Program-made: the position numbers and the translations under genes | Origin: an uncultured archaeon | Lineage (GTDB): Archaea > Iainarchaeota > Iainarchaeia > Iainarchaeales > CSSED10-239 | Assembly: GCA_964496765.1 (NCBI GenBank) | Contig: CAZCAP010000001.1 | Span: 1 to 23,188, forward strand | Direction: 5' to 3' | DNA length: 23,188 bases | Notes under the pieces: model-generated | Database searches by the model: none | Seen by the model: the letters and a program-made list of their open reading frames with translations, nothing else | What the model was told of the DNA's origin: nothing | In this document: in pieces, positions 2,461 through 21,821 of the stretch | Numbering within the stretch: the first letter of the stretch is position 1 | Layout: the number at the start of each line of letters is the position of its first letter

Positions 2461-2468
2461 TTGGACGC
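2461..2468 (+). repeat. TTGGACGC motif copy followed by a T-run
   Basis: aaatgTTGGACGCttattttttt; compare 2618-2625. Confidence 0.7.
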
Positions 2469-2617
2469 TTATTTTTTTGTGAAACGAAATAAATTTCTCT
2501 TGAATTTTTGTGTGTGATATTTTTTTTAAATTTTTGTTTTTTTAAATCAAACAAATGGGTGTTGTGTGTATCTCCTTTATTTATGGGTGTTTGCAATAAT
2601 TTACAATTCAAAAAATA

Positions 2618-2625
2618 TTGGACGC
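2618..2625 (+). repeat. TTGGACGC motif copy followed by a T-run
   Basis: aatatTGGACGCagttttttt. Same 8-mer as 2461-2468, in direct orientation, 157 bp apart. Confidence 0.7.
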
Positions 2626-2668
2626 AGTTTTTTTAATTTTTTTTAAAAAAATTAAGCGATTGAAAACA

Positions 2669-2703
2669 TTTATATAGGTTTCTAATTACATATAATTAAT
2701 AAA
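2669..2703 (+). promoter_or_regulatory. Archaeal promoter of micro-ORF 1 (BRE/TATA plus initiator-like box)
   Basis: gaaaacaTTTATATA (TATA 2669-2676). The conserved box cATATAATTAATAAa lies at 2689-2703, 22 nt from TATA start to TATAATTAATAA. Confidence 0.6.
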
Positions 2704-2715
2704 TATATTATAATT

Positions 2716-2736
2716 TTTGCAAATTCATTTTGCAAA
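2716..2736 (+). promoter_or_regulatory. 5' leader stem-loop of micro-ORF 1
   Basis: Two copies of the self-complementary octamer TTTGCAAA (2716-2723, 2729-2736) can pair as an 8-bp stem with the 5-nt loop ttcat. The stem ends 8 nt before the SD GGGGGAG (2745-2751). Confidence 0.45.
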
Positions 2737-2757
2737 GAAAAAAAGGGGGAGACTAAA

Positions 2758-2838
2758 ATGGTTAAGAAGAAAGTTGTTAAGAAAACTGTTGCTAAGAAAC
2801 CAGCTAAAAAAGTAGTTAAGAAAAAGAAGAAGAAGTAA
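2758..2838 (+). CDS. Lysine-rich micro-protein, 26 aa (MVKKKVVKKTVAKKPAKKVVKKKKKK)
   Basis: Not in the supplied ORF track (too short). ATG 2758, TAA 2836-2838. GGGGGAG SD 6 nt upstream, own TATA promoter, T-rich tracts downstream. Sequence is histone-H1-tail-like (AKKPAKK). Confidence 0.45.
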   Translation: MVKKKVVKKTVAKKPAKKVVKKKKKK

Positions 2839-2892
2839 ATCTTTCTGATTTATTTTTTTCTTAACGATGAAATAAATCTTTTTGATTTATTT
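2836..2892 (+). repeat. 20-nt direct repeat pair downstream of micro-ORF 1
   Basis: taaatctttctgatttattt (2836-2855) and taaatctttttgatttattt (2873-2892) match 19/20. Each runs into a T-tract, so these may be duplicated terminators. Confidence 0.6.
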
Positions 2893-2940
2893 CCTTTTTT
2901 TATTTTATATTTTATTCTCGTTCTTATTTTACTAAATTTC

Positions 2941-2967
2941 TTGGACAAATGCTAAATATTTTGGACA
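2941..2967 (+). repeat. Two TTGGACA cores spaced 20 nt start to start
   Basis: aaatttcTTGGACAaatgctaaatattTTGGACAatt. The second core ends 17 nt upstream of the TATA box at 2984. Confidence 0.7.
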
Positions 2968-2983
2968 ATTATAAACTATCAGA

Positions 2984-3018
2984 TTTATATATCTTTGTAT
3001 GCAATATATAATTAATAA
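2984..3018 (+). promoter_or_regulatory. Archaeal promoter of micro-ORF 2 (TATA plus initiator-like box)
   Basis: TTTATATA at 2984-2991 and TATAATTAATAA at 3007-3018, a 23-nt offset. This is the same 12-mer as at 2691 and 5259. Confidence 0.55.
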
Positions 3019-3020
3019 TT

Positions 3021-3043
3021 TTATTCTATTATTTATAGAATAA
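3021..3043 (+). promoter_or_regulatory. 5' leader stem-loop of micro-ORF 2
   Basis: ttattctat (3021-3029) and atagaataa (3035-3043) form a perfect 9-bp inverted repeat with the 5-nt loop tattt. It lies upstream of the SD GGGGGAG at 3069-3075. Confidence 0.45.
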
Positions 3044-3083
3044 TTATTCACGAATTATTCAAAGGAAAGGGGGAGAAAAAAAT

Positions 3084-3119
3084 ATGGTAAAGAAGAAAGC
3101 AAAAGCAAAGAAGAAATAA
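3084..3119 (+). CDS. Lysine-rich micro-ORF, 11 aa (MVKKKAKAKKK)
   Basis: ATG 3084, TAA 3117-3119. Same MVKKK start, GGGGGAG SD (8-nt spacer) and promoter design as 2758-2838. It is very short and could be a truncated paralogue or a regulatory uORF. Confidence 0.3.
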   Translation: MVKKKAKAKKK

Positions 3120-3240
3120 ATTTAATTAATTAAGTTTATTTCAGTTATTTATTTTTTTAATATTTTTTTTCTTTTTTTTATTTTTTTAATCTCCGTTAAT
3201 TACAATACCTTTTAAAACCTAATCTACTTTTATTATATCT

Positions 3241-4389
3241 ATGAAAAAGGATATAATTATACTTGGATCTAATTCTAGTTTGTCCATTGCTATTATTGAC
3301 TTTTTTAAAAAATATAAAAATAAATATAATATTGTAGGAATCACCTATGACTGGTCTTTGGATAATCTTGATCTTTTCCTAAAGCAAATAAAAGAAATTA
3401 ATCCAAAAATTATATATGTGGATAGGAAAGAAGATTTTGATTTGATTCAGGCAAAGGATATATCTGATAAAGTTTCTTTATTCCATGGGGAAGATTCATT
3501 TGTTAAATTTTTAAGATCAACAGAGATAGACATGGTTGTGTCCAATCTTAGAGGCAGCTCATCAATCAAGAAGATATTATCTTCAATCTATGAATATAAA
3601 GATATTACTTTACTTAATTCTTCTCCTATTCTCTATTCTGGACAAATTATTATTCAAGATGCAAAATCAAAAGGAGTTTCTTTGAATATTTGCACATATC
3701 CAATATATTCACTAACTCAATTTTTTAAATCAAGAAAAGTAGAAGATATTTATGCACTTCATTTTTTCACATCAAAACACAGTGAAGAAAACAAAATTGA
3801 AGAATTAGATCCTGATGATTACAAAACCCATTTTGAGTTTGTGAAAGAATTTAATTCAACAAATAAAATTAAAATGCTCTATGAATTTTATCTGACAAAT
3901 TATATGTATAACATACCATTAGCAAAAATTTCTTTTTATGAACAAAGCAAACCACTGATATCCATTGCTGTTCAATTTAAGGATGGAAGTAACCTACTTA
4001 ACACAACCAAGAAAGAAATAGAAAATATATTTAATTATTACTTTCTAGACTCTGATTTATTTCCCACAGTAAAGCTTCCTGTTTATGATACCCTAACCAT
4101 TTCTCTTAAAAGAATAGAGCCTAATAATTATAGCCTATTGAAAATGGGATTGGATGCAATCACAAAAGGAGGAGCAACTCCAATAATCTTCTATATAACC
4201 CTAGATAAGATTATAGAGATGATGTACAATAAGGTTTTAAAGAAAAAAACAGATATTCTTAAAATTGTTGAGGAAATAATTAATGATAATCGTCTCTATA
4301 ATAAAAAACTAGATTTAAGCCTAATTTGTGCTCTAGAAAAAAAAATAAGTGATAGATTAAATGAAAAGTATTTAATTAAAAAGAAATAA
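3241..4389 (+). CDS. DXR-family (1-deoxy-D-xylulose-5-phosphate reductoisomerase-like) protein with degenerate cofactor and catalytic motifs
   Basis: 382 aa, collinear by eye with E. coli Dxr. ILGSNSSLS aligns to ILGSTGSIG, LLNSSPIL to LANKESLV, LNICTYPIYSLTQFF to LLPVDSEHNAIFQSL, FKDGSNLL to YQDGSVLA, and YSLLKMGLDAITKGGATP to YPCLKLAMEAFEQGQAAT. A TATA-like TTTTAAAA at 3210-3217 with no SD suggests a leaderless transcript. Confidence 0.6.
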   Translation: MKKDIIILGSNSSLSIAIIDFFKKYKNKYNIVGITYDWSLDNLDLFLKQIKEINPKIIYVDRKEDFDLIQAKDISDKVSLFHGEDSFVKFLRSTEIDMVVSNLRGSSSIKKILSSIYEYKDITLLNSSPILYSGQIIIQDAKSKGVSLNICTYPIYSLTQFFKSRKVEDIYALHFFTSKHSEENKIEELDPDDYKTHFEFVKEFNSTNKIKMLYEFYLTNYMYNIPLAKISFYEQSKPLISIAVQFKDGSNLLNTTKKEIENIFNYYFLDSDLFPTVKLPVYDTLTISLKRIEPNNYSLLKMGLDAITKGGATPIIFYITLDKIIEMMYNKVLKKKTDILKIVEEIINDNRLYNKKLDLSLICALEKKISDRLNEKYLIKKK

Positions 4390-4391
4390 GT

Positions 4392-5177
4392 CTATAGTTC
4401 TTCTTCTTTAATCACAACAGATGCCCTACTCTTTTCTTTTGCTTGTTCAACTAGTTCTGGTTTTTGTTTAATGTGTTCAAGACCATAGGATGCTACAATG
4501 TGTCCAAATGAATAGGAATATTTCTCATCAAAGGTTTTTTTATTAAACTTAGTGCAATAATGGGAACCTCCTACTCCAATTGCTTCAACCCATCCCTTTT
4601 CTTTCTTAATTTCTTGCCTATTGTAATTAGAAATAACATTAAATAAACAGGTTAACATGAATCTAGCTACATCCCTATCAACCCATGCATCTTTATTTGA
4701 ACCAATCTCATAAAATATAGTTGATGTGGATAGAAAAGGACCATGATGAGTTGCTTCCTGTTTAATTTCATAGGGCTTAAGTGCTAATGGCTTATTACTT
4801 TTAAGCTCAAGTAATAGAGATCTTATTAGAATTGGATCAGTTTCTATGATTGTGTGATCAAGTCCACCAAGATCAGCTTTTCCCCAATTACCTATTGGAT
4901 GAACAGTCATACTTTTTGGTTTAATCTCCCCTAGAGTTGAATGCTTTGATAGAAAGATTATTTGATTGATAGCTAGCTCTGGTTCAATAATTTCTTCTTC
5001 CTTTGAAAAAATGTGTAAAGAAGTAATGATCTTAAGATATACTACATTTTTAGAATTTTCTTTGGTTACCTTAAATACATTAGAATTAATCTCTTCAATA
5101 TCATATTCAGTAAATAATATTTCCTTGAAGTTAAGAGAAGCAATGTCCTGATTTGAAATAATTAGTAAAAAATTCAT
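4392..5177 (-). CDS. dtdA: D-aminoacyl-tRNA deacylase, archaeal DTD2 type
   Basis: 261 aa. N-terminus LLIISNQDIASLN, EATHHGP motif and GVGGSHY motif are typical of the tRNA_deacylase (DTD2) family. AAAGGATGA SD and a TATA-like box lie upstream on the minus strand. Confidence 0.75.
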   Translation of the reverse strand: MNFLLIISNQDIASLNFKEILFTEYDIEEINSNVFKVTKENSKNVVYLKIITSLHIFSKEEEIIEPELAINQIIFLSKHSTLGEIKPKSMTVHPIGNWGKADLGGLDHTIIETDPILIRSLLLELKSNKPLALKPYEIKQEATHHGPFLSTSTIFYEIGSNKDAWVDRDVARFMLTCLFNVISNYNRQEIKKEKGWVEAIGVGGSHYCTKFNKKTFDEKYSYSFGHIVASYGLEHIKQKPELVEQAKEKSRASVVIKEEEL

Positions 5178-5227
5178 ATTTCATCCTTTTTAGTGTATTT
5201 ACCTTATAAAGATAATAGGGGAAACCA

Positions 5228-5296
5228 TTTATAAATATTTTTAGCTACATTATTAGTATATAATTAATAATATATAATCTTAATTATTAGGGGGAG
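5228..5296 (+). promoter_or_regulatory. Promoter and leader of the thymidylate operon
   Basis: gaaaccaTTTATAAA (TATA 5228-5235), TATAATTAATAA at 5259-5270, GGGGGAG SD at 5290-5296. Same design as the micro-ORF promoters. It is divergent from the dtdA promoter. Confidence 0.55.
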
Positions 5297-5302
5297 TTAA
5301 AA

Positions 5303-5656
5303 ATGATATATATAGCTAACAAAATGTTTCCATTAAGAATTGATAGAAAATCAAGAGCACCAGTGGAACTAGAAATTTCTTTAAAAAATCAAAACTCATT
5401 AAATAAGTTAATTTCCTATGAAATTGTTTTTCCAGAAGGCATATCTGTAAACACAAAGAATAAGAAAGGAAGTGAGATATTTAAGCTTGGAGAAATGGTT
5501 CCTGATGAAGTAAGGACATTCAAGTATAAATTATTGCCAACTAGCTATTTAGGAGAAGGAACAGTAGAATTGATTGTAAGAGCCTATGAGCACATTGGAT
5601 CCTATGATAATCTAGAACAAACAACAGAAAAAAGAGTTCAAATTAGGGTTGTATAA
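5303..5656 (+). CDS. Hypothetical protein (117 aa), first gene of the operon
   Basis: ORF with a strong GGGGGAG SD 6 nt upstream and non-repetitive composition. No family recognised. Confidence 0.65.
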   Translation: MIYIANKMFPLRIDRKSRAPVELEISLKNQNSLNKLISYEIVFPEGISVNTKNKKGSEIFKLGEMVPDEVRTFKYKLLPTSYLGEGTVELIVRAYEHIGSYDNLEQTTEKRVQIRVV

Positions 5657-5671
5657 ATTATAGCTTGTGAG

Positions 5672-6238
5672 ATGAAACTAATGCCACAGAGACCACTTAA
5701 GCTTCCTGAAAAGCTAGCCAAAAAAGGCAAAACCTTAGAGGATATAAGAAAAATGGTTTTTGAGAAGAAAAAAAGCACGTCCTACGTTATTAAACAAACA
5801 AAGGCAGATGCCTTTAAAGAACATGCCTATTTTCAATCACTGGTTAATAAAATAAAAAGAATCAATCAAAGATTAAAAGAAAAAACCACAAATTCATTTA
5901 CAAAAAGAATGCTAAGCTTTGAATTAATAAGAACGAAAATGGACCTTAATTTAATGGAATTTAAAGTTACTACAGAGTTTAATCTTAAAAATATTGAGAG
6001 AATGCCAAATACTAGTAGCGTTGTTTTAAAGAAGATAAGTGTATTAAAAAATATGGTGAATAAAATACTAAGAGACATAGATTTTAGTTTGGAAGCACAA
6101 ACAATATCCATTGAAAATGCAAAAAAGTTCTCAAGCAAGTTAAGTTCTGAATCCCAAAGAATAGATACAATTAATGATTTAGAAAAATTTCTTAACAAAA
6201 AGCTTATTGAGCTTCAAAACTATAAATTATTAAACTAA
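5672..6238 (+). CDS. Hypothetical Lys-rich, probably helical protein (188 aa)
   Basis: ORF 15 nt after the previous stop and 2 nt before tmk. Starts M-K-L-MPQRP. Weak resemblance to the ORF at 8180-8788 (MP.. start; KxxxSKL[ST]SE about 30 aa from the C-terminus). Confidence 0.6.
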   Translation: MKLMPQRPLKLPEKLAKKGKTLEDIRKMVFEKKKSTSYVIKQTKADAFKEHAYFQSLVNKIKRINQRLKEKTTNSFTKRMLSFELIRTKMDLNLMEFKVTTEFNLKNIERMPNTSSVVLKKISVLKNMVNKILRDIDFSLEAQTISIENAKKFSSKLSSESQRIDTINDLEKFLNKKLIELQNYKLLN

Positions 6239-6240
6239 AG

Positions 6241-6936
6241 ATGAATAAAATGATTAAAGGAAAACTAATTGTAATTGATGGAACTGATGGTTCCGGTAAG
6301 GCAACACAGGTTAAACTTCTTAAGGATAAACTAATAAATGAGGGGCATTTAGTTGAGACTATTGATTTTCCACAGTATAGTTTTAAATCTGCAGGTCCAA
6401 CTGAAGAATATCTTTCAGGGAAATATGGTGCTCCTGATGAGGTTGGAGCCTATAGAGCATCTATTTTTTATGCTGTTGATAGGTATGATGCTTCTTTTAG
6501 GATGAAAGAATGGTTAGAAGCAGGGAAGATAGTTATTTGTGATAGATATGTTTCTGCAAACATGGGACATCAGGCAGGAAAGATAGAAGATCTAAAAGAA
6601 AGAGATAAATATCTTGATTGGTTATTTGATTTAGAATTTAATATATTTAAGATTCCAAAACCAGATATAAATATATTTTTATATTTGGATCCGGTTATTG
6701 CAAGAAGACTTGCACAGGAGAACACAAGCAATAAGTTTACAAATGAAATAAAAAAGAATGATATTCATGAGAAGGATCCTGAGCACATGAAGAAGGCAAG
6801 TGAATCATTTAAGTACGTCGCTGATAAATACAAATGGATAACAATAGATTGTTCAGACAAACAAGAACAAGCAGGAATAAGGACAAGAGAAGATATATCA
6901 GAAGAAATATATAATAAGGTAAAGGGGTTAATATAG
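6241..6936 (+). CDS. tmk: Thymidylate kinase
   Basis: P-loop [13 protein letters not shown], the DRY motif (CDRYVSAN), 231 aa. Confidence 0.9.
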
Positions 6937-8162
6937 TGAACTCATCAAAGGAAATATTTGAACTTATTAAAAAAGAAGAAGAAAGACAACAAAATACCAT
7001 TGAAATGATTGCTTCGGAGAATATTACTTCAAAAGCAGTTAGAAAGGCTTGTGGTTCTGTTCTTACAAATAAATATGCTGAAGGATACCCTACAAAAAGA
7101 TATTATTCTGGTTGTGAAAACGTAGACAAGATTGAACAAATTGGAATTGATACATGCAAAAAACTATTTAAATCAAATTTTGCAAATATCCAAGCTCATT
7201 CTGGATCAAATGCAAATGAAATTGCTTATTTTTCTTGTTTAGAACCAAAAGATAAGATATTAGGTATGTCTCTAGATGCTGGTGGGCATTTAACTCATGG
7301 TTATAAGATTAATTTTTCAGGTAAAATTTACGAATCTAATTTTTATGGAGTAGGAACTGATGGTTATCTTGATTATGATGTGATTAGAAAGCAAGCTATT
7401 GAAATTAAACCCAAATTAATTATTGCAGGAGCATCAGCATATCCTAGAAAAATTGATTTTTCTGAGTTTAAAAAAATCGCTGATGAATCAGGTGCGTTAT
7501 TAATGGTTGATATGGCTCATATTGCGGGTCTTGTTGCAACAAATCTTCATCAATCTCCAATAACCCATGCAGATATTGTTACATCAACCACACATAAGAC
7601 ACTTAGAGGTCCAAGAGGTGGATTTATTCTTACAAATACAGAAGAAAGAAGTAAAAAAGTTGATAAAGCTTGTTTTCCTGGATTTCAAGGTGGACCACTG
7701 GAACACATAATTGCAGGAAAAGCAATTTGTTTTAGAGAAGCATTAAAACCAAGTTTTAAAAAATATCAAAAACAAGTTCTGTTAAATTCCAAAGTCTTAG
7801 CAGATGAACTTCTGTCCTATGGTTTTAATCTAGTGACAGGTGGAACAGATAATCATCTTCTTTTAGTTGATTTAAGACCCAAAGGAGTTACTGGTAAGGA
7901 AGCAGAAGCACTTCTTGAGAAGTGTGGAATTTCAGTAAACAAGAATGCAATTCCAAATGATCCACAACCACCAATGATTGCTTCAGGTATAAGAATAGGA
8001 ACCCCAGCAATAACAACAAGAGGAGCAAAGGAAGAAGATATAAAGATAATTGCAAAATATATTAATGATATACTTACTAATAAAGATGATGATGCGCTTC
8101 ATCAAAAGATAAAGCTAGAAATTATAGAATTATTAAAAAATTTTCCAATAAATAAAATTTAA
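6936..8162 (+). CDS. glyA: Serine hydroxymethyltransferase
   Basis: IEMIASEN and the PLP-lysine motif [14 protein letters not shown], 408 aa. The GTG start overlaps the tmk stop by 1 nt (TAGTG). Confidence 0.95.
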
Positions 8163-11693: not shown

Positions 11694-12375
11694 TCTTAAG
11701 CAGATTCTTTCTTCTCTTAGGAAGAAAGGAGACCCCACTCATGCAAGGAACGAAGAAAAGTATCTTAAAACAAATTTTAAATGCTATGGAGTTTATGGAA
11801 CTGAGCTCCATCTTTCTTTAAATGAGTTTTGTAAATCACATAAAGACATTTCTAAAGCGGACTTGTTATATTTGTTGGACAGTTTGTGGACCTCTAAGTA
11901 CCATACAGAAAAAACATTTGCAATTAAGCTTGTTTCCAAGTATATTTCTCTTTTTGGACCCAAAGATATACCCTATTTCAAAAAATGGTTAAAAGAATCA
12001 GATGGATGGTGTCACACAGATTATATTTGTGGTTTAGTTGTTGGTGAACTTGTATACAAGCACCCTACAATTAAAAAAACAATTAATTGCTGGAGAGATG
12101 ATAAAGTTCTGTGGGTAAGAAGAGCATCCCTAATATCCTATATAGTCTCCATAAGGCATACAGATAGGGACATTAAAGATGTATTCAACAATTCAATTTA
12201 TCTTTCTGGAGAAAAAGATTTTTTTATTAGAAAAGCAATTGGTTGGATATTACGTGAAGCATCTAAAAAATATCCAAAAGAAGTATTAGGTTTTGTTTCT
12301 AAATATGAAAATAAACTCTCAAATCTTTCAAAAAAAGAAGCAATAAGAAATATTAAATTAAAGAAAACTTTATAA
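11662..12375 (+). CDS. DNA alkylation repair protein (AlkC/AlkD-like HEAT-repeat family)
   Basis: KYLKTNFKCYGV, WVRRASLIS and FFIRKAIGWILREASKKYP are typical of the DNA_alkylation family. ATG 11662 is preferred over TTG 11656. It overlaps the deaminase gene by 32 nt in another frame. Confidence 0.7.
   Translation: MEQTIIKALSDLKQILSSLRKKGDPTHARNEEKYLKTNFKCYGVYGTELHLSLNEFCKSHKDISKADLLYLLDSLWTSKYHTEKTFAIKLVSKYISLFGPKDIPYFKKWLKESDGWCHTDYICGLVVGELVYKHPTIKKTINCWRDDKVLWVRRASLISYIVSIRHTDRDIKDVFNNSIYLSGEKDFFIRKAIGWILREASKKYPKEVLGFVSKYENKLSNLSKKEAIRNIKLKKTL
11863..11881 (+). repeat. 19-nt element TTGTTATATTTGTTGGACA, copy A (inside the AlkD-like CDS)
   Basis: Identical 19/19 to the reverse complement of 21803-21821. 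Confidence 0.8.
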
Positions 12376-13566: not shown

Positions 13567-15972
13567 ATGAATGATGATAATTTATTTGATAGAGAGACTT
13601 TGAAAGCAGTTTCATCGGACACAAGATCAGATATTTTGAAAATCCTAAACGAAAAAAATTATACTTTATCTGATATTTCTGGAAAACTTAAACTTAGTAA
13701 TCCTACTGTTAAAGAGCACCTTGATATTCTTTCAAGAAATCAACTAATTAAAAAAGAGGATACAGATAGGAAATGGAAATATTATTCTTTAACATCTAAA
13801 GGTAAATATTTTTGTGATAAATATAAAATTAAAGACGAACAAAAAAATGTTATTACAATGGAGACGAGCTATATGAAAAGAAATATGTTAATAGGAGGTG
13901 TTGTACTTTTACTTGCAGTAGGTATAATTATCTCAATAATTGGTTTTGGAGGACCAAATAATAACGGTGTATTTAATGGTATAAACTTATACAATAATTC
14001 AAATGATATAAACTTATACAATAATTCAAATGATATGCCTGTATATACCATAAACAAATTTACTTCTGATCAAGAATTAATTAATGCATTTAAGAATGCA
14101 AATAATAATTCCGGAGGACGTTATGGTGGTTTAGTTGATGGCCTAATGATGAAAGGAGCTACAATGGAAATGGCAACTGGGGCAGCACCACAGGTAGCAA
14201 ATGATTCATCATCAGCTGGAAGCTCAGATTATTCAGAAACAAATGTTCAGGTAGCAGGAGTTGATGAAGCAGACATAATCAAAACAGATGGAAAATACAT
14301 TTATGCATTATCAGGAGATAAGTTTTTTGTAATTGAAGCATATCCTGGAGAAGATGCAAAGATATTATCTGAAACAATAATTACAGATGAAAATACACAA
14401 TTCTATCCACAGGAATTGTTCATAGATGGGGATAGAATATTAATCTTTGGACAAGGAATGTATGAAATGGATCCTATTATCTATGAAAATCAACCAGAAT
14501 TAGATATGGTAATGATGCCCTACTATCCAAGATATGCTTCTGCAACATCAATTAAATTAATTGATGTTCAAGACAAAACAAATCCAGAAGTAATTAAAAC
14601 AGTGGACTTTGAAGGAAGTTATTTAACATCAAGAAAGATAGATGAATACGTTTATTTTGTAATAAATAGCTATCCTAACTTTGATTTAGTTGATGATGGA
14701 TGTATTAATATCCTACCAACCTACAAGGAAGCAATAGGTACAAGTGATTCAGAAGTGAAACCAATTGCAGCAAGTTGTACAGATATAGGATATGTTAGAC
14801 CATTGGAAGCAAGAAACTTTATAACAATTGCTTCAATCTCTATCTTGGATGAAACCAAGGATCTTACTAAAGAAACAATTGTTGGTTCTGGTCAAGACGT
14901 TTATGCATCTTTAGATAATATATATGTTACTCAAACAACACATCCAATTTACGGAATTGTTGGAGATATAATGACAGATGCAGATAATACAGTTAAGACT
15001 ACCATCACCAAGTTTAATTTGGATAATGATGAGATTAACTTTGTTGGCTATGGTTCTGTAAACGGAACTCTGTTAAACCAATTTGCAATGGATGAATATG
15101 ATAACCATTTCAGAATTGCAACAACAATTAATAGCTATTCAAATAATAAGGATACATCTACTAACAATGTATATGTACTTGATGATCAATTGGTTGTTAC
15201 TGGAAAAGTAGAGGGAATTGCTCCTGGTGAAAGTATTTATTCAGTAAGATTCATGGGCAATAGAGGATACATGGTAACCTTTAGACATGTTGATCCATTA
15301 TATGTTATAGATCTTTCAGACCCTGCAAATCCAGAAATACTTGGACAATTAAAAATTCCAGGCTACTCTGATTACCTACACCCATACGATGAAACACATC
15401 TAATTGGTATTGGAAAAGAGGTTGATGCTTCAATAGATGCAAACCTAGTACACACAGAAGGTGCAGTATATTACACAGCAATACAGGGTGTAAAGCTTGC
15501 AATCTTTGATGTGTCTGATGTATCCAATCCAATTGAAATGTACAAAGAAGTAATTGGAGATAGAGGAACAGAGAGTCTTGCAACAAGTGATCACAAAGCA
15601 TTCCTTTTTGATAAGGAAAAGAATCTCCTAGTAATTCCTATGACCGTTGCTGAATTAGCACCTGATCAATCAAAGAGTGATCAGGGACAATATACCTTTG
15701 ATGGAGCCTATGTGTATGATGTTTCACTTGAGAATGGATTTGATCTTAGAGGAAAGGTAACTCACATGGATAGTAATGATGATAGCCTATTAAAAGCTGG
15801 TTATTACTATTATGGTGGTAACCTAAGCATTAAGAGAAGTCTGTATATAAGTGATGTACTCTATACCCTATCAAATAATAAATTAAAATTAAATAATCTT
15901 AATACACTTGAACATATTAAGACTTTAATTTTAAACGAAGGAGATGGAGATCAACCAATGTACTATAGATGA
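13567..15972 (+). CDS. ArsR-type wHTH - TM - extracellular beta-propeller (Beta_propel/COG4880-type) protein
   Basis: The N-terminus (LKAVSSDTRSDILKIL..YTLSDISGKLKLSNPTVKEHLDIL) is ArsR-like, and one TM follows (MLIGGVVLLLAVGIIISIIGF). The C-terminus contains SVRFMGNRGYMVTFRHVDPLYVIDLSDPANPEILGQLKIPGYSDYLHP, typical of the secreted beta-propeller family. ATG 13567 (M32 of the track ORF) is preferred: the upstream 93 nt are AT-rich and promoter-like (ctttaaaaat about 30 nt upstream), so the transcript is probably leaderless. Confidence 0.8.
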   Translation: MNDDNLFDRETLKAVSSDTRSDILKILNEKNYTLSDISGKLKLSNPTVKEHLDILSRNQLIKKEDTDRKWKYYSLTSKGKYFCDKYKIKDEQKNVITMETSYMKRNMLIGGVVLLLAVGIIISIIGFGGPNNNGVFNGINLYNNSNDINLYNNSNDMPVYTINKFTSDQELINAFKNANNNSGGRYGGLVDGLMMKGATMEMATGAAPQVANDSSSAGSSDYSETNVQVAGVDEADIIKTDGKYIYALSGDKFFVIEAYPGEDAKILSETIITDENTQFYPQELFIDGDRILIFGQGMYEMDPIIYENQPELDMVMMPYYPRYASATSIKLIDVQDKTNPEVIKTVDFEGSYLTSRKIDEYVYFVINSYPNFDLVDDGCINILPTYKEAIGTSDSEVKPIAASCTDIGYVRPLEARNFITIASISILDETKDLTKETIVGSGQDVYASLDNIYVTQTTHPIYGIVGDIMTDADNTVKTTITKFNLDNDEINFVGYGSVNGTLLNQFAMDEYDNHFRIATTINSYSNNKDTSTNNVYVLDDQLVVTGKVEGIAPGESIYSVRFMGNRGYMVTFRHVDPLYVIDLSDPANPEILGQLKIPGYSDYLHPYDETHLIGIGKEVDASIDANLVHTEGAVYYTAIQGVKLAIFDVSDVSNPIEMYKEVIGDRGTESLATSDHKAFLFDKEKNLLVIPMTVAELAPDQSKSDQGQYTFDGAYVYDVSLENGFDLRGKVTHMDSNDDSLLKAGYYYYGGNLSIKRSLYISDVLYTLSNNKLKLNNLNTLEHIKTLILNEGDGDQPMYYR
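13981..14034 (+). repeat. Perfect in-frame 27-bp tandem duplication (INLYNNSND x2)
   Basis: ataaacttatacaataattcaaatgat occurs at 13981-14007 and again at 14008-14034, in the juxtamembrane linker of the beta-propeller protein. Confidence 0.95.
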
Positions 15973-16716: not shown

Positions 16717-16757
16717 ATTTTGGTCTAAAAGAACCTTATAATAGGGTAAAACCCCTA

Positions 16758-16783: not shown

Positions 16784-16882
16784 TAGTATATGCCTTGAGA
16801 GAAACTAATTATTATTATAATAATTCAAATTCTATAGTTAGTGAACAAGATAGGTAAAAAAAAAGGATAAAAAAATAGGTGA

Positions 16883-17086: not shown

Positions 17087-17110
17087 ATTCTAATCTCAAA
17101 CTAAAAAAAG

Positions 17111-17140
17111 GAGCTAGATTTTTTTCTAGTTTCTTTTCCT
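17111..17140 (+). terminator. Hairpin plus T-run terminator candidate
   Basis: ctaga (17114-17118) and tctag (17125-17129) pair across a T6 loop, extendable with A-U and G-U pairs, followed by tttcttttcc. Confidence 0.45.
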
Positions 17141-17182
17141 AACATCTTAATTCTTTTTCTAATAAATTAATCTAATTTTATT

Positions 17183-17201
17183 TTGTTATATTTCTTGGAC
17201 A
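17183..17201 (+). repeat. 19-nt element, copy B (TTGTTATATTTCTTGGACA, 18/19)
   Basis: Lies in the convergent spacer between the CxxC gene and pyrI. It ends 4 nt from the pyrI stop codon at 17206-17208. Confidence 0.8.
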
Positions 17202-17205
17202 TTAT

Positions 17206-17670
17206 TTAATATTTTATTTGTGCTAAATTTTGAATTTTCTCACAATAGATACATTTGAATCTGGTGTTATTATCTATTACTTTGAATTTTGTAGAAATTG
17301 GCTCAACATTTGTAATACAGTTTGGGTTATTGCAAGTAATTATTCTTTCAATCATTTCTGGCATTTTAACTATCCATTTCTTTACAACAACATTATCTCT
17401 AATAATGTTTATAGTTGTGTGCTCAGAAATAATTGCAACCTTATTTAGCTCATCTTCAGTAAGTTCTTTGTTTTCAATCTTAATTAGGTCCTTCTTTCCT
17501 TGCTTCTTACTGTCTAAGTTTTTCGCAATCACAATCAAAGTATCTATCTTGCTTAGATTCAATGCCTTATATATTCCAATTGCCTTACCAGCATCAATGT
17601 GGTCAATAACAACTCCGTTACTAATTACTCCAATTTTTCTAGGTTCAATATCATCCATATATCTTTTCAC
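17206..17670 (-). CDS. pyrI: Aspartate carbamoyltransferase regulatory subunit
   Basis: 154 aa. VIDHI in the N-terminal allosteric domain, and a C-terminal Zn cluster CNNPNC...CIYCEK. Confidence 0.9.
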   Translation of the reverse strand: MKRYMDDIEPRKIGVISNGVVIDHIDAGKAIGIYKALNLSKIDTLIVIAKNLDSKKQGKKDLIKIENKELTEDELNKVAIISEHTTINIIRDNVVVKKWIVKMPEMIERIITCNNPNCITNVEPISTKFKVIDNNTRFKCIYCEKIQNLAQIKY

Positions 17671-18601
17671 CCACTAGCCCTAGGCAAATGCAGAGTATAG
17701 CTTGCCTTACTGGAACTCCATTCTTTGCTTGCTTGAAATAGATATTATGTGTTGTAGAATCAACATCTGTTGTTATCTCATAAACCCTTGGAAGGGGATG
17801 CATAACAAGAATATCTTTATTTCCTTCTTTTTCAAGAATCTCTTTAGTTATTGTGTACTTCTTTTTTAAAGGTTCAATATCTATTGGCTCAACAATTCTT
17901 TCAACCTGTGTTCTAGTAACATATAAGATATCCAAATCCTTAAGGTTATTAATATAGGTATCTGAAACAATATACTTTATATTCTTTTTTTCAAGCAGAT
18001 CAAGATAATCTTTGCCTATTTGAAAATGATTATCTGCAATGAATTTAATTACTTTTGGATTGTATAAAGAAATTGCTTCAACAAGAGAATGAACTGTTCT
18101 TCCATATTTAAGATCCCCAAAAAAACCAATTGATAGATTATCTAGTCTTTTCTTTTCTTTCTTAATTGTATAGAGATCCAATAGGGTCTGAGTTGGATGT
18201 TGATTTGTTCCATCTCCTGCATTAATTATTGGTTTAGTTGTTATTTCGCTAGCTAAACGTGGTGCTCCTTCAAATTTTGTTCTCATAACAATTAAATCTG
18301 AATAATCAGAAATAATTTTAATTGAGTCAGAGAACGTTTCTCCTTTTTTTAAAGATGTGTTTGAAATATCATCAAATCCAATTGTGTTCCCACCAAGCTT
18401 TTTAACTGCTGTTTCAAAGGAAAGTTTTGTTCTTGTTGATGGCTCAAAAAAAAGGTTAGCAACAACTTTCCCATTAAGTATATCTTTGTATTTAGTTGGA
18501 TATTTTTCAATATCCTCAGCAATAGAAAGAATATAATTTATTTTAGAAACAGATAAATCTTGGATAGAGATGACACTTCGTATTTGGGTTTCACTAATCA
18601 T
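17651..18601 (-). CDS. pyrB: Aspartate carbamoyltransferase catalytic subunit
   Basis: STRTKLSFE, the carbamoyl-phosphate site HPTQ, and HPLPR. 316 aa. It overlaps pyrI by 20 nt. GGTAGGTGA SD and a TTTTAAATA TATA lie upstream on the minus strand. Confidence 0.95.
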   Translation of the reverse strand: MISETQIRSVISIQDLSVSKINYILSIAEDIEKYPTKYKDILNGKVVANLFFEPSTRTKLSFETAVKKLGGNTIGFDDISNTSLKKGETFSDSIKIISDYSDLIVMRTKFEGAPRLASEITTKPIINAGDGTNQHPTQTLLDLYTIKKEKKRLDNLSIGFFGDLKYGRTVHSLVEAISLYNPKVIKFIADNHFQIGKDYLDLLEKKNIKYIVSDTYINNLKDLDILYVTRTQVERIVEPIDIEPLKKKYTITKEILEKEGNKDILVMHPLPRVYEITTDVDSTTHNIYFKQAKNGVPVRQAILCICLGLVGEKIYG

Positions 18602-18754
18602 TTATATCACCTACCCTCTTACTATTAATTCTTGAATCAAACCTATTTAAAATAAGTTGGTTGGTTATGTAGCAATAACTAATTAATAAGTTTGATTAAT
18701 TTATTTTTTTTCTTTTAATTTCTATCCAATCTAGGCTGTGTTTTGCAGAATATC

Positions 18755-18775
18755 TTGGACACTTCTTTTGTCCAA
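18755..18775. promoter_or_regulatory. Perfect palindrome TTGGACA-N7-TGTCCAA (candidate dimeric regulator site)
   Basis: ttggacacttcttttgtccaa sits in the divergent spacer between pyrB (start 18601) and micro-ORF 3 (start 18838). It ends 5 nt before a TATA-like ttttattt at 18781-18788. Confidence 0.6.
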
Positions 18776-18837
18776 TATGCTTTTATTTCCTTTGGTTAAC
18801 CTTTTAATTAAACTAATAAATTTAAGGAGAAATGATT

Positions 18838-18945
18838 ATGGTTTGTGATTGTGGATGTGTGTCTAAAAAACCTGTAGCAAAAAAGAAAGTTGTTGTTGCA
18901 AAGAAGAAAATTGTTGCAACAAAAAAGAAAGTTAAGAAAAAGTAA
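18838..18945 (+). CDS. Cys/Lys-rich micro-protein, 35 aa (MVCDCGCVSKKPVAKKKVVVAKKKIVATKKKVKKK)
   Basis: Not in the ORF track. AAGGAG SD at 18824-18829, 8 nt before ATG 18838; an in-frame ATG at 18832 is too close to the SD. TAA at 18943-18945. It has the MV start and K/V/A composition of 2758-2838. Confidence 0.4.
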   Translation: MVCDCGCVSKKPVAKKKVVVAKKKIVATKKKVKKK

Positions 18946-19208
18946 TTGAAAATTCAGAAAATCAAAAGATCTGAAAAATAGGTGCTTTTCTTTGGGTAAA
19001 TTGAGGGCAATTACTCTACCCCAATCGCCTTCGATTTTTCATGCGTTTTCTAAGTTTTCTCGCAGATCTAGATTTTTCTCGAAAATTTAGCTTTTTCTTC
19101 ATTTTTTCATTGATTTTATGCGTTTTTGGTCGGCATAACAGTTATTATCAAGAACGGAGGTTTTTAAGATGCCGATAGGGTTTTAAATGCTTTCATTAAT
19201 ATTTTAAT
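18946..19208. other. GC-richer non-coding island with internal short repeats
   Basis: About 40% G+C over 19001-19060 against very AT-rich spacers elsewhere. Repeated words tttcatgcgtttt and ttttatgcgttttt. Inverted repeats tcggcat (19130-19136) / atgccga (19169-19175) and ttgggta / taccccaa (18991-19023). No ORF of 60 aa or more. Confidence 0.5.
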
Positions 19209-19220
19209 TTGGTGATAATT

Positions 19221-19625
19221 ATGGATTATGCACAATCTAAAGAATATAAAAAAAATTGGGATCGTGAGCATGTAGAAGATATTAAAATTAGAAAAAGAAT
19301 AAGAGGTGCTTTAATCAAGAAAGAACTAATTAAATATAAAGGTGGGGCTTGTTCAAGATGTGGATACAATAAAACTTCTGTTGCATTAACTTTTCATCAT
19401 CTACATAACCAAGATCAAAAGAAAGAATATGATATTGCAACTAAGATAGGGAATAGGTGTTCTCTTGAATCTATTAAAAAGGAAGCAGATAAATGCATTC
19501 TAGTTTGTGAGAATTGCCATAGAGAGATCCACCAAGAGATGACAGACAAAATAAATAAACCAATTGAAGAGGCTTATGTAGCTACATTAAATGAAGTAAG
19601 TAAAAAATCTTTATATACACTTTAA
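19221..19625 (+). CDS. HNH endonuclease domain protein
   Basis: CSRCGY..LTFHHL....CENCHREIH matches the CxxC...HH...CxxC.H. HNH/zinc-finger pattern. GGTGA SD at 19211-19215. ATG 19221 is preferred over TTG 19209. Confidence 0.8.
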   Translation: MDYAQSKEYKKNWDREHVEDIKIRKRIRGALIKKELIKYKGGACSRCGYNKTSVALTFHHLHNQDQKKEYDIATKIGNRCSLESIKKEADKCILVCENCHREIHQEMTDKINKPIEEAYVATLNEVSKKSLYTL

Positions 19626-19641
19626 TTGTTTGTGAAAATTG

Positions 19642-19660
19642 TGTCCAACAAATATAGCAG
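19642..19660 (-). repeat. 19-nt element, copy C (CTGCTATATTTGTTGGACA on the minus strand, 17/19)
   Basis: Lies in the convergent spacer, 3 nt after the stop of the minus-strand gene 19664-20284. On the plus strand GTGTCCAACAAATATA (19641-19656) is identical to 21802-21817. Confidence 0.8.
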
Positions 19661-19663
19661 ATT

Positions 19664-20284
19664 TTATTTATATCTCTTCGGTACTTTCACATAGTTTGGC
19701 AAAATAATTATTTCTCTTTTGAATTTTTCCTTGCTTACTAAATCAAGCTTTATGTTCTTTGAAACAAGTTGCTTATGTTTAATGTCTGAGAACCTAGCTT
19801 CCGTTTCTTTCACTAACCTAGTACTTTTGAGATTTTCTTCTGTAAACTTAATAGGCAAAGGAAGAGAATGTCCTCTCAGACCCATATACCCTTGAAAACT
19901 AAAATAATTATCAAAATAACTCATTGCAAGTTCACGAAGAGACTTGTACACAGGATATCTATATCTCAACCCAAGAAACTTGCTTTGGGCAATAGCTCCA
20001 TATAATCCTTTTACCTTAAACACACAAAGAACGTGATCTTCATCTCTTACAGCAGTTAAATCTATTAGGAAGGACTTGATTTTATGTTCTTGTAAAACAA
20101 AGCACGCAAAGATAGCTGCTTCAAGACAATCTCCTTTCTTTTCTCTTAGCACATCAAAAACAGATATTCTTTTTCCTGTGTTGTATCCTATTGAATTAAC
20201 AAACTTTTGGATCTTCCAAGGGGTGTTGAGTTTGTTTATTAGCCTTTGTTCTTCTTTGTTAAAAACATCTTTCATTCTAATCAC
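19664..20284 (-). CDS. Transglutaminase-like / papain-fold cysteine peptidase superfamily protein (putative)
   Basis: 206 aa. KKGDCLEAAIFACFVL (candidate nucleophile Cys at a helix start) is followed about 35 aa later by DHVLCVF. The assignment rests on motif resemblance only. Confidence 0.45.
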   Translation of the reverse strand: MIRMKDVFNKEEQRLINKLNTPWKIQKFVNSIGYNTGKRISVFDVLREKKGDCLEAAIFACFVLQEHKIKSFLIDLTAVRDEDHVLCVFKVKGLYGAIAQSKFLGLRYRYPVYKSLRELAMSYFDNYFSFQGYMGLRGHSLPLPIKFTEENLKSTRLVKETEARFSDIKHKQLVSKNIKLDLVSKEKFKREIIILPNYVKVPKRYK

Positions 20285-20377
20285 TTTCTAAAGATAAAGC
20301 ATGCAAAGATATTTAAACCTAATATACTACATATAATTAGGGTTTTAATGAAAGAAATTAATATAAATAATTAAGAG

Positions 20378-20623
20378 ATGATTTATATGTATGGAGATGT
20401 TAGGCCATCTATGTTTGGTAACAAGGCACAGGAAAAGCAAAAGCAAGTGCAAGCTGCAACTAAAGATGTTGCGTATCTTAGAAGACCCTATAGAGGAAGA
20501 GAAGTTATTGTTTACATTGATAAGGATGATAATTTTTATACAAACTTTGATAATACTAAATGTTCACACTTTTCTGAAGCTTTACAAAAAGCCTATGAAA
20601 AGATTAATCTTGGAGAATATTAA
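20378..20623 (+). CDS. Hypothetical small protein (81 aa)
   Basis: This frame has protein-like composition, and the overlapping frame 20391-20627 was rejected. The upstream promoter has atatttaaa (20309-20317) and TATAATTA (20332-20339). Start uncertain: 20378 or 20387. Confidence 0.45.
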   Translation: MIYMYGDVRPSMFGNKAQEKQKQVQAATKDVAYLRRPYRGREVIVYIDKDDNFYTNFDNTKCSHFSEALQKAYEKINLGEY

Positions 20624-20649
20624 TTAAAACAAAATAGGAGGCATAAAAA

Positions 20650-20964
20650 ATGCAAATTTTCGCTTTATTAGGACTTACTTTAGTAATTGTAGCATGGATA
20701 TTACAACTATTATCAACTATTAAGGGAAGTAAATCAATTCAACCACAATTCGTTTTATTTTATTTAATTGGTGTAATTTTTTTAGTAATTGATGGTTTTG
20801 CAGCAGGGCTTAATGATCTTGCATTCTTAAATCTTATAAGTTTCCTTGTATCACTTGCTGTGTTTATTAGGCTTGTAAGTAGAGAACACGAACACCCTAA
20901 GCCAATAGTTAGATCAAAGCCAATAGTTAAATCAAAAGCTAAATCTAAAAGAAAGAAGAAATAA
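20650..20964 (+). CDS. Small membrane protein (about 3 TM) with a basic repeat tail
   Basis: Strong AGGAGG SD. Three hydrophobic helices. The C-terminus is PKPIVRSKPIVKSKAKSKRKKK, which contains the internal repeat KPIV[RK]SK x2. Confidence 0.6.
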   Translation: MQIFALLGLTLVIVAWILQLLSTIKGSKSIQPQFVLFYLIGVIFLVIDGFAAGLNDLAFLNLISFLVSLAVFIRLVSREHEHPKPIVRSKPIVKSKAKSKRKKK

Positions 20965-20980
20965 TTTCTTTCTTTTTTTC

Positions 20981-21430
20981 TTATTTTTTTAATAATTTTT
21001 TAAAAGTTATGGGGTTAATTACTTTTATACCTTTGATTCTTTTATGGTTCTTGTCGTTGAAGGAATAGATGGTGGTTATTTTATTGTCCAACATAGTTTG
21101 TAATAATAATGCATCATAGAAAGATATGTTTTTTTCAAAAGATAAATTTAGAGCATCAAAAACTGTAGTTTGATTGTAGTGAATTATTTCAAACATATCT
21201 TTGATGTTTGCTAAATCAAGTTCTATCTTTTTTTTATCGGATATCTTTAACTTTGTCCTTGCTATTGCTGCATATTCTTGATAATTTTGAATACCTATGC
21301 ATACTCTGTGGTCTGCATATAATTTTAAAATGAGGTTTCTTGCAATTTCTTTTTTCCCTAAATCAATATCTGTATATGCTGCAAGAAGTATATCAGTATC
21401 AATTAAACATCTATCTATCATAGTAATCAC
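20981..21430 (-). CDS. vapC: PIN-domain toxin (VapC-like ribonuclease)
   Basis: N-terminus LIDTDIL (first acidic residue), then FYDALLLQT and a C-terminal SFNDK.. pattern. 149 aa. It overlaps the upstream small gene by 20 nt. Confidence 0.75.
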   Translation of the reverse strand: MITMIDRCLIDTDILLAAYTDIDLGKKEIARNLILKLYADHRVCIGIQNYQEYAAIARTKLKISDKKKIELDLANIKDMFEIIHYNQTTVFDALNLSFEKNISFYDALLLQTMLDNKITTIYSFNDKNHKRIKGIKVINPITFKKLLKK

Positions 21431-21656
21431 CTCTTGTTTTTTGATTTTTCTTTCCTGTTCCTATTTTGGTTGATCCTTCCTTAGAGGTTAGTTTCAAAAA
21501 ATCATCAGCTAAATTTGCTTTTTCATTAGTGAGTTTTGATATTGCTTTAATTATAGTTTTTGAAAGAGCATCCTTTCTATCTCCATAGTTTGCTTTTGCT
21601 GAATCACGGAGCATTCTTTCTGAATCTTTATCCAAAGATATTGTAATTACACCCAT
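21411..21656 (-). CDS. Putative VapB-type antitoxin (ribbon-helix-helix-like)
   Basis: MGVITISLDKDSERMLRD.. reads as beta-strand then helices. An internal Met (M17 of the track ORF) is preferred as the start. The gene is coupled to the PIN gene. Confidence 0.55.
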   Translation of the reverse strand: MGVITISLDKDSERMLRDSAKANYGDRKDALSKTIIKAISKLTNEKANLADDFLKLTSKEGSTKIGTGKKNQKTRGDYYDR

Positions 21657-21802
21657 ATTTTCCCACATCCTTTCGGCTTTAATTTTATTATATGGATATA
21701 TCAAAGGATTTTTAAATGTTGTTAATTACATAAACCATTAATTAAATAGTACTTTATTTAAATAATCTATTACTTAAATCCTGTGATTTATTTTTGGTAT
21801 AG

Positions 21803-21821
21803 TGTCCAACAAATATAACAA
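21803..21821 (-). repeat. 19-nt element, copy D (TTGTTATATTTGTTGGACA on the minus strand, 19/19 with copy A)
   Basis: The plus strand reads tgtccaacaaatataacaa. It lies between the DUF333 gene (stop at 21903) and the antitoxin gene. Confidence 0.8.

Follow-up and report, generated by a model that had tools for sequence, protein, structure and literature searches.

The stretch of DNA analysed here (the window) comprises positions 1–23,188 of contig CAZCAP010000001.1, from an uncultured archaeon of the Iainarchaeales, and carries repeated copies of a short element built around TTGGACA, the subject of this report. The window has a G+C content of 29.5% and includes the archaeal markers EF-2, pyrBI and ThyA/DHFR; FtsZ was found in relatives. 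It matches part of the 56.9 kb ENA contig ERZ27248961 k141_720007 and of a JGI lake contig identically, and with these it was extended to 34.5 kb. Genes were mapped from open reading frames (ORFs), gene calls on the identical public contigs and Pfam. Related loci are labelled with L-numbers (L019, L167, L175 etc.).

A first-pass annotation of the window had drawn attention to a 19 bp element, TTGTTATATTTGTTGGACA, in four near-identical copies. All four lie where it placed them, at 11863–11881 (+) and 21803–21821 (-) with no mismatches, at 17183–17201 (+) with one and at 19642–19660 (-) with two. The shorter copies that it listed at 2461, 2618, 2941 and 2961, and the palindrome at 18755–18775 (TTGGACA-N7-TGTCCAA), are also present, and it was right about the genes that surround them (EF-2, the micro-ORFs, the CxxC gene and pyrI, pyrB and micro-ORF 3, the HNH and transglutaminase-like genes, DUF333 and vapB). 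Four matches to TTGTTATATTTGTTGGACA were reached in none of 100 dinucleotide shuffles of the window, where the mean was 0.02. The hexamer TTGGAC, counted on both strands, occurs 20 times compared with 8.7 +/- 2.8 times in shuffles (maximum 15). Nine of these are in the 2,733 nt of non-coding DNA, as had been reported, but 11 rather than nine are in the 20,455 nt of coding DNA, which brings the total to 20 rather than 18 and the ratio of densities to 6.1 rather than 7–8. The composition of the non-coding DNA predicts only 0.43 occurrences (Poisson P ~1e-9).

The motif and its copies in the window

Alignment of 90 crude site families gave the consensus YTGYTATATTTSTTGGACA(S)T, which is 21 bp long and asymmetric. 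Information content is high over positions 1–21 (~25 bits) and at background immediately outside them, which bears out the earlier statement that the flanks are unconserved and that the element is neither a miniature inverted-repeat transposable element (MITE) nor a duplicated segment. Positions 5–11 are almost exclusively A or T, forming a TATA-like centre with conserved boxes on both sides. Copies found without the strict pattern follow a looser form, namely TTRYWA, an A/T-only centre, T, S and TTGGACA. We consider TTGTTATATTTGTTGGACA to be the best-matching form of a 21 bp asymmetric recognition motif made up of a semi-conserved TTRYWA, an A/T-only centre and an invariant TTGGACA followed by S-T. 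When 79 kb of loci that had not been chosen by motif were scanned with a position weight matrix (PWM; score >=12), 27 sites were found, compared with 0.6 in shuffles. This corresponds to approximately one copy per 3 kb; over all clade loci the density is approximately one per 4–9 kb. The copies in the window are listed in Table 1, where the TTGGACA end is the head and the TTRYWA end the tail.

Table 1. Copies of the 21 bp motif in the window
Position	Strand	Sequence	Location	PWM score
2449..2469	+	TTTCATTAAATGTTGGACGCT (weak)	112 nt past EF-2 stop, then T7 run	13.3
2606..2626	+	ends in TTGGACGC (weak)	~43 nt 5' of micro-ORF 1 TATA box; TTGGAC at 2618	below threshold
2929..2949	+	TTACTAAATTTCTTGGACAAA	first of tandem pair (20 nt period), 5' of micro-ORF 2	23.4
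2949..2969	+	ATGCTAAATATTTTGGACAAT	second of tandem pair, 17 nt 5' of micro-ORF 2 TATA box	19.9
11863..11883	+	consensus	inside AlkD-like gene, sense, read LLYLLD	30.5
17183..17203	+		convergent spacer; head 2–3 nt from opposite-strand pyrI stop; 96 nt past CxxC gene	
18743..18763	+	TTGCAGAATATCTTGGACACT (full)	points at micro-ORF 3; left half of palindrome	24.4
18767..18787	-	AATAAAAGCATATTGGACAAA (weaker)	head-to-head partner; right half of palindrome 18755–18775	
19640..19660	-	CTGCTATATTTGTTGGACACA	38 nt convergent spacer; tail 3 nt past transglutaminase-like stop, head 14 nt from HNH stop	
21083..21103	-	TTACAAACTATGTTGGACAAT (weak)	inside vapC, sense	
21801..21821	-	consensus	between DUF333 (81 nt upstream) and vapB; 38–44 nt 5' of vapBC TATTTAAATAA repeats	

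Single copies of the motif showed no hairpin potential beyond that of shuffles (z = +0.7 to -0.25). A hairpin is possible only for the palindromic pair at micro-ORF 3 (z = -4), which is also all that a simple terminator scan flagged. An intrinsic terminator of the oligo-T type has a sense-strand run of at least five T where the unit ends. As the longest T run within the motif is TTT, this class was rejected; the T runs of spacers fall before or after the motif, and stand ahead of many copies. An Rfam scan of the window returned no match at E <= 1, a tRNA search of the window found none, and an Rfam scan of ten related loci returned only ordinary tRNAs. A known RNA family was rejected, as covariance-model scans had no match in the window. 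Two candidate small RNAs were also discarded. The stretch between the two copies that follow EF-2 folds no better than shuffles (z = -0.02) and is the least conserved relative to L175, and the ATGATGA after the L040 copy, which had suggested a C/D-box RNA, is replaced by CAGATCA in L117. As single copies form no hairpin, and as antisense copies inside genes are kept across species (see below), the motif appears to be read as DNA rather than as a folded strand.

Clade restriction, conservation and polarity

When one genome per species in GTDB was scanned with the strict pattern YTGYTATATTTSTTGGACA, the assembly of 'archaeon isolate ELA007', JBAWVI01, which shares 81–90% DNA identity with the window, contained 15 strict copies on 12 contigs. 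All other genomes had at most one match, the level expected by chance. Among the matches listed for JGI metagenomes, approximately 65 were in contigs with less than 31% G+C, from several species of the clade. The motif is not present in L173 and L174, which have equal G+C content and PyrI proteins of 59% identity, so it is restricted to a narrow clade. Two scans of viral contigs returned only single matches at chance level, and a viral origin or a viral promoter mimicking that of the host was rejected on these grounds. In the papers that we found, TTGGACA is not linked to archaea and no DPANN promoter motif of this kind is described. A regulatory DNA word recognised by a protein is, as such, already known; the unusual features here are polarity, placement against stop codons and upkeep inside genes.

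Syntenic loci were retrieved via PyrI and AlkD homologues, and are hence unbiased with respect to the motif. Every site in the window recurs at the orthologous place among L175, L167, L169, L171/L172 and L019, where the flanks are only ~80% identical or cannot be aligned. Within these sites TTGGACA is invariant, and the centre drifts yet remains A/T. The copy at the pyrI stop codon is flush with it in four other lineages (L167, L169, L171/L172 and L175), while the gene on the opposite side varies between the CxxC gene, a gene for 263 amino acids (aa) and a helix-turn-helix (HTH)-beta-propeller gene. The copy next to the transglutaminase-like stop codon has orthologues with diverged flanks in L019, L167 and L169, and is missing from L175 only along with the HNH and transglutaminase-like genes themselves. 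Upstream of vapB, orthologous or paralogous copies were found in L019, L167/L114, L169, L175, L100 and L136, and the homology between the window and L019 stops at the tail of this motif. At the other end of the window, the weak copy after EF-2 corresponds in L175 to TTTCATTAAATGTTGGACACT, which lies within a conserved block.

All three micro-ORF units have a conserved copy upstream that points at the unit. The L175 orthologue of the weak copy ahead of micro-ORF 1 scores 10.4, and both members of the tandem pair ahead of micro-ORF 2 are kept in L175 along with their spacing. The micro-ORF 3 copy adjoins the orthologous unit in L167, L169, L172 and L175, and the spacer between the two TTGGACA cores of the palindrome is 6, 7 or 8 nt, depending on the species.

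Coding copies occupy at least two reading frames. The copy in the AlkD-like gene is represented by an identical 19-mer at identical codons in L175, L094 and L103, and the peptide it encodes, LLYLLD, is confined to AlkD homologues that are at least 78% identical. Homologues of 57% identity or less have LQKILD or LLKILD instead. In L171 the AlkD position is taken by an unrelated gene, and L175 and L176 were used for comparison in its place; in the L176 homologue (56% identity), the DNA at the motif position is TTACAGAAAATATTGGACAGA. The AlkD copy thus arose by three amino-acid replacements toward the consensus (LQKILD to LLYLLD), a case of selection, or drive, on the DNA word rather than on the protein. 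As there are two reading frames and the AlkD peptide is clade-specific, a conserved peptide was rejected as the cause of the coding copies. Antisense coding copies are kept across species in a Trm5-like gene and in ICMT. For the weak vapC copy, which scores 16.6–19.1 across the window, L167, L169, L175 and L019, protein constraint (MLDNKI) may be a sufficient explanation.

Among the 90 families, 56 are intergenic, though spacers make up only ~12% of the sequence (gene calls in the retrieved loci are ORF-based). The motif is co-oriented with both neighbouring genes in 29 tandem spacers and opposed to them in five (P = 4e-5), and of the copies inside genes, 24 are sense and 10 antisense (P = 0.02). 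In 15 of 43 intergenic families a stop codon is no more than 10 nt away, compared with 7.9 +/- 1.7 when placed at random in the same spacers, and in convergent spacers 10 of 11 copies are within 3 nt of one. There is no corresponding enrichment 8–35 nt upstream of starts (8 of 38, with 5.8 expected); distances to starts reach more than 400 nt. In the unbiased loci, the motif was found in eight of 11 convergent spacers of at least 21 nt, but in only 12 of 50 tandem and six of 25 divergent spacers, and on this basis we rejected a core promoter as its general class. The entire 3.2–11.7 kb operon region and the 22–33 kb region are free of the motif despite including promoter-bearing spacers; a general promoter or a general terminator was rejected, as most spacers are without a copy. 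Copies are also paired, head-to-head at micro-ORF 3 and tail-to-tail in L040/L117 and L052. Beyond the pyrI stop codon, more than 100 nt of the gene's own strand are free of oligo-T runs.

The earlier suggestion of a non-random motif family at transcription-unit boundaries is upheld by these data. The element is a conserved, clade-specific, strand-polar cis-element. What this adds to the first description is its length of 21 bp, its direction, its confinement to one clade, its conservation across species and a coding copy under selection at the DNA level.

Neighbouring genes and other conserved sequences

The micro-ORF 1 and 2 units (2640–2838 and 2970–3119 in the window; 2430–2900 in L175) are paralogous, with lysine-rich products of 26 and 11 aa, and have a strong GGGGGAG Shine-Dalgarno sequence ahead of the coding part. 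Their promoter and leader of ~60 nt, which includes the repeat TTTTGCAAA...TTTTGCAAAGA, are almost 100% conserved between the window and L175, while the coding part of micro-ORF 1 differs by a 21 nt indel and substitutions. The leader or RNA may be more important than the peptide. A non-coding block between micro-ORF 3 and the HNH gene (18975–19165 in the window; ~16930–17130 in L175; 7828–8090 in L167) is also conserved, with GAGGSCAATTACYCTACCCCAATC and TTCGGCATAA..TTATC as its conserved stretches. Rfam has no match to this block, which has only a weak consensus fold (-9.8 kcal/mol). Its 16 nt core ATTACCCTACCCCAAT is present in L167 as the reverse complement, ATTGGGGTAGGGTAAT, with the flanks unchanged, which suggests a small inversion in place or a site that is functional in either orientation.

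Upstream of vapB (21700–21780 in the window, - strand) are two operator-like repeats, TATTTAAATAA and, after 7–9 nt, TATTTAA(A/T)T. They are kept in five vapBC loci (including L019, L100, L114 and L136), always 38–44 nt past the 21 bp motif, and are probably the site of VapB autoregulation. A second over-represented intergenic 7-mer in the clade loci is TAATTAC/GTAATTA (87 observed, 20 expected), examples of which are at 3203–3209, 2685–2691 and 21724–21730 in the window. It often takes the form TAATTACAT, 6–8 nt 3' of a TATA-like box, and could represent an initiator region or a further operator. The ordinary leaderless promoter of the clade consists of an A-rich box, TTTT(T)AAA and CCTAATCT, with ~15 nt to the ATG (window 3205–3240; L029, L064, L035 and L052), and most other clade genes have leaders of 25–45 nt with a Shine-Dalgarno sequence.

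The gene at 13567–15972, which adjoins the motif-rich region and has orthologues in L167, L169, L171 and L175, encodes a conserved 800 aa protein in which a winged helix of the ArsR type at the N-terminus is followed by a hydrophobic segment and then by a large beta-propeller domain (PF09826). The protein is possibly a one-component regulator tethered to the membrane. The start of the gene has a weak motif copy 3 nt away in L167, and in the window this HTH_5/beta-propeller gene includes an in-frame 27 nt tandem duplication (13975–14028, 96% identical) that repeats the peptide NGINLYNNS. In L040 (5200–5298), L117 (7819–7900) and L141, a 100 nt leader 3' of the motif, AACTTATCCTTGGCCAGGAACCCCCAAAACAATTATAAACTC, is near-identical between species, and the sequence immediately before it differs. 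It precedes a 406 aa gene, the N-terminus of which we take, by eye, to resemble a PD-(D/E)XK nuclease. The leader could function as a regulatory RNA or as another site for a protein.

Further afield, a cyclodipeptide synthase gene (PF16715) was found in relatives (among the loci listed, L019 5603–7406, L167 15780–16478 and L169 1–647). ELA007 contains a 1.9 kb insertion of genes for 214, 229 and 150 aa, the last presumably a phosphoribosyltransferase from its appearance by eye, where the corresponding spacer in the window genome is 54 nt. The L174 UvrB contains an intein with a LAGLIDADG domain.

Candidate roles and known systems

A motif that is restricted to one clade, kept at orthologous places, polar with respect to genes and set against stop codons could be bound by a lineage-specific protein and so serve as a transcription boundary that depends on orientation. 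The constrained orientation (29:5 and 24:10) and the location at transcription-unit ends are features of this class. Among the roles initially put forward, one associated with boundaries or terminators fits best, given the strand polarity, the flush placement at stop codons and the occupancy of convergent spacers, but a general co-directional terminator is contradicted. Protein binding, action on the elongating polymerase and the direction that is blocked are what we infer from the sequence. Under this reading, one dedicated sequence-specific DNA-binding protein, limited to a small clade of AT-rich lake archaea, would occupy the motif. RNA polymerase travelling from tail to head would pass the bound site, and polymerase meeting the head would be halted, whether it was reading through from a convergent gene or transcribing upstream-antisense from the next promoter. 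The bound site would shield the gene behind it and terminate the transcript of the gene that it faces, and sense copies would be tolerated in genes and operons. A gene with the tail against its stop codon would be protected from antisense transcription arriving from downstream, while the transcript of a gene with the head against its stop codon, as at pyrI, would be ended at once. Paired copies in divergent spacers would insulate two promoters from each other. Of the readings weighed here, this model is the one that accommodates all of the observations.

Stated as a barrier, the proposal is of a protein-bound 21 bp site that lets RNA polymerase (or possibly an SMC complex or the replisome) through one way, halts it the other way and, throughout a highly compact AT-rich genome, insulates genes from readthrough and antisense transcription, an archaeal analogue of Reb1/TTF-I roadblock terminators or CTCF-like polar boundaries. 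It is conceivable in that form, if doubtful.

Several points weigh against a transcription boundary. The blocking polarity is deduced from the sense bias inside genes alone. Most loci were fetched by the strict motif, so the counts of families given above carry ascertainment bias, and the convergent-spacer statistics represent two independent families in the unbiased loci and approximately six or seven overall. The flush placement at stop codons could be explained in part by genome compaction. In four or five gene families, the motif lies 13–33 nt before the start, with its TATA-like centre at the place of a promoter; this fits a promoter better, and the boundary model must assume transcription from further upstream. 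The prior is also low, as we know of no orientation-dependent transcription roadblock in archaea. We therefore favour the boundary tentatively, as an inference that has no known archaeal precedent and has to compete with compaction, and we leave part of the probability to explanations not listed here.

The close rival is control of initiation, with the motif serving a single transcription factor as its operator or upstream site, or constituting a distinct class of promoter that has a TATA-like centre of its own. The regulon would comprise vapBC, tRNA-Thr, the three micro-ORF units and the genes for a CDC48-like ATPase and a Xer-like recombinase. An operator for one regulator, with the micro-ORFs in its regulon, had been among the first suggestions, and it stays alive through the conserved upstream copies of the three micro-ORF units and through copies that point from upstream at vapBC and other genes, but the placement relative to promoters varies. 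The A/T-only centre speaks for control of initiation, as do distances from motif to start that suit leaderless or short-leader geometry (tRNA-Thr 15–28 nt, CDC48-like 13–19 nt, Xer-like 24–25 nt and a membrane protein 28–33 nt, in two or three species each). Indeed, where the motif is missing from L117 tRNA-Thr, an ordinary A/T-rich TATA-like stretch takes its place. The motif faces co-oriented genes far more often than it faces away from them, its clusters (the tandem pair, the palindrome and the inverted pairs) are operator-like, its spacing from the vapBC repeats is steady despite variable intervening sequence, and its presence at only a subset of units is regulon-like. However, start distances range from 13 to more than 400 nt without enrichment at promoter distance, and an ordinary promoter often intervenes, such as TTTTTAAAcctaatct in L029/L064, which lies between the motif and the gene and has a leaderless ATG 24 nt later. 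Occupancy peaks in convergent spacers, where annotated genes need no promoter; copies there and within genes would have to give rise to antisense or internal transcripts. Head-to-head and tail-to-tail pairs both exist, so one set would fire into each other, a conflict that does not arise for a bound protein. The motif is asymmetric and near-invariant over 19 bp, unlike degenerate dyad-symmetric operators, and pyrI orthologues keep TTGGACA while the TATA-like centre drifts (e.g. ACAATGTTTC). On balance, we consider control of initiation possible but somewhat unlikely. An element acting at the RNA level, read in a 3' untranslated region, leader or coding sequence as a termination or processing signal or as the site of an RNA-binding protein or guide RNA, would account for the sense-strand bias in spacers and genes, for copies that often begin 1–11 nt past the stop codon of a co-oriented gene and for the U-rich sense strand. 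It is nevertheless improbable. As the motif is often preceded by oligo-T terminator runs, many copies may not be co-transcribed with the upstream gene, and antisense coding copies are kept across species. The pyrI copy is placed relative to a gene on the opposite strand, the palindrome would hide the motif in a hairpin, and Rfam offers no match. A co-directional terminator, acting through DNA or through RNA, is further contradicted by genes that start 13–19 nt downstream and by the sense excess within genes.

Recombination or drive, in which the motif would be a recombinase core site at cassette junctions (integron- or dif-like) or an uptake-type sequence spreading by biased gene conversion, is very unlikely. 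Recombination sites had been proposed at first pass, and the case for them is weak at best, as direct copies flank some insertions and not others. They are found on either side of three lineage-specific ones, the 263 aa gene (L171/L172), a peptidase C39 gene (L169) and a 107 aa region (L167), and gene content varies in just that part of the window where the motif is dense, but the motif is not near the 1.9 kb three-gene insertion in ELA007, nor the 202 aa/NDT, K-channel and dCMP-deaminase differences. The Xer-like gene has a motif 24 nt upstream; no recombinase gene was found in the window. GTTGGAC suits the GTTRRRY core, and the palindrome resembles a recombination site in its 11 bp arms and 6–8 nt spacer, but this spacer differs among species and most copies are single, with neither inverted partner nor hairpin. 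Sites also stay at orthologous places. For drive, near-identical copies and an AlkD copy made by amino-acid changes are what uptake sequences would produce, but the strong gene-orientation bias would be unexpected. A mobile repeat (MITE, or a REP/REPIN palindrome), or chance similarity in a genome where AT-rich DNA yields many spurious repeats, has a negligible probability, and we regard it as refuted. The inverted pairs in L040/L117 and L052 do resemble small doublets, but the unit is not palindromic, there are no terminal repeats or target duplications, and the intragenic copies are kept across species; the counts were never reproduced by shuffles. MITEs and repeats derived from insertion sequences were rejected because the flanks are at background in the 90 families, a repeat search adds few bases of similarity, and the presence/absence variation expected between relatives was not seen, all window sites with orthologous DNA being kept. 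REP/REPIN were rejected because single units do not fold and 34 of 90 families are inside genes.

Almost nothing is known of how transcription is organised in uncultured archaea with small genomes. As a polar boundary, the motif would be the first roadblock or insulator with sequence specificity to be reported from Archaea, and would account for the way in which closely spaced convergent genes escape transcriptional collision. Should it instead be an operator or special promoter, lysine-rich micro-proteins, a toxin-antitoxin pair, pyrBI and stress/repair genes would be joined in one regulon. Under either reading, the 21-mer TTGTTATATTTGTTGGACACT is ready-made bait for the protein.

Comparison with known systems separates the motif from several classes of short repeated element. 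The integron core consensus is GTTRRRY, and attC sites are imperfect palindromes of 57–141 bp that contain R''/L'' and L'/R' boxes and form arrays adjoining the gene for an integrase. The motif resembles attC and Xer dif/pdif sites in its GTTGGAC, in the arms and 6–8 nt spacer of the palindrome and in the direct copies that flank some variable genes, but its copies are mostly lone half-sites at stable orthologous positions, with no array beside an integrase. Integron attC was rejected, as copies are single, without a partner arm, and no integrase was found in the window. With DNA uptake sequences (the uptake signal sequence, USS, of Pasteurellaceae and the DUS of Neisseria) it shares a clade-specific core with an A/T-rich flank, near-identical copies that occur in both genes and spacers and in some cases form inverted pairs where genes end, and coding copies that cost amino-acid changes. 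Those sequences are 5–10 times denser and not gene-oriented, and an uptake sequence was rejected as the motif occurs only approximately once per 3–9 kb and is strongly gene-oriented; to our knowledge, no competence system or uptake is known in these archaea. Tandem half-site operators such as the Pho box bound by PhoB similarly have two direct-repeat half-sites approximately one helical turn apart around an A/T-rich spacer (TTRYWA and TTGGAC in the motif), which makes the site asymmetric and its orientation toward the promoter important, but the half-sites of the motif are only weakly similar (3–4 of 6) and its positions are not tied to promoters. Archaeal promoters, with a TATA box beside the transcription factor B recognition element (BRE), are like the motif in being directional, in having a 7–8 bp A/T-rich centre beside a conserved box and, in some cases, in the position 13–33 nt 5' of starts. 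Unlike them, the motif is far more conserved, is missing from most promoter-holding spacers, and is frequent in convergent spacers and genes without a preferred distance to starts. The ordinary promoters of the clade also differ from it, being composed of an A-rich box, TTTTAAA and then CCT.

The Tus-Ter and RTP-Ter systems are closer. Their sites are asymmetric, ~20 bp long, both coding and intergenic and permissive in one direction, and the + + - - order in the window is trap-like. However, Ter sites number ~10 per genome and halt replication forks near the terminus, while the motif occurs approximately once per 3–9 kb, tracks local gene orientation and also forms close inverted pairs. That this + + - - order marks a terminus of replication or a switch in GC skew was rejected, as GC skew just tracks the gene strand. 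Reb1, Rap1 and Abf1 in yeast and TTF-I at the mammalian Sal box are sequence-specific factors bound at roadblock terminators or insulators. These systems are eukaryotic, and the motif described here differs in that its sense intragenic copies are common and conserved. Like the motif, their sites are asymmetric, ~18–20 bp long and located 3' of units and 5' of the promoter that follows, in many cases past a T-rich stretch. Their effect depends on orientation, and curbs readthrough and divergent or antisense transcription. By this analogy, the Reb1/Rap1/TTF-I roadblocks and bacterial Tus-Ter may be its closest functional counterparts.

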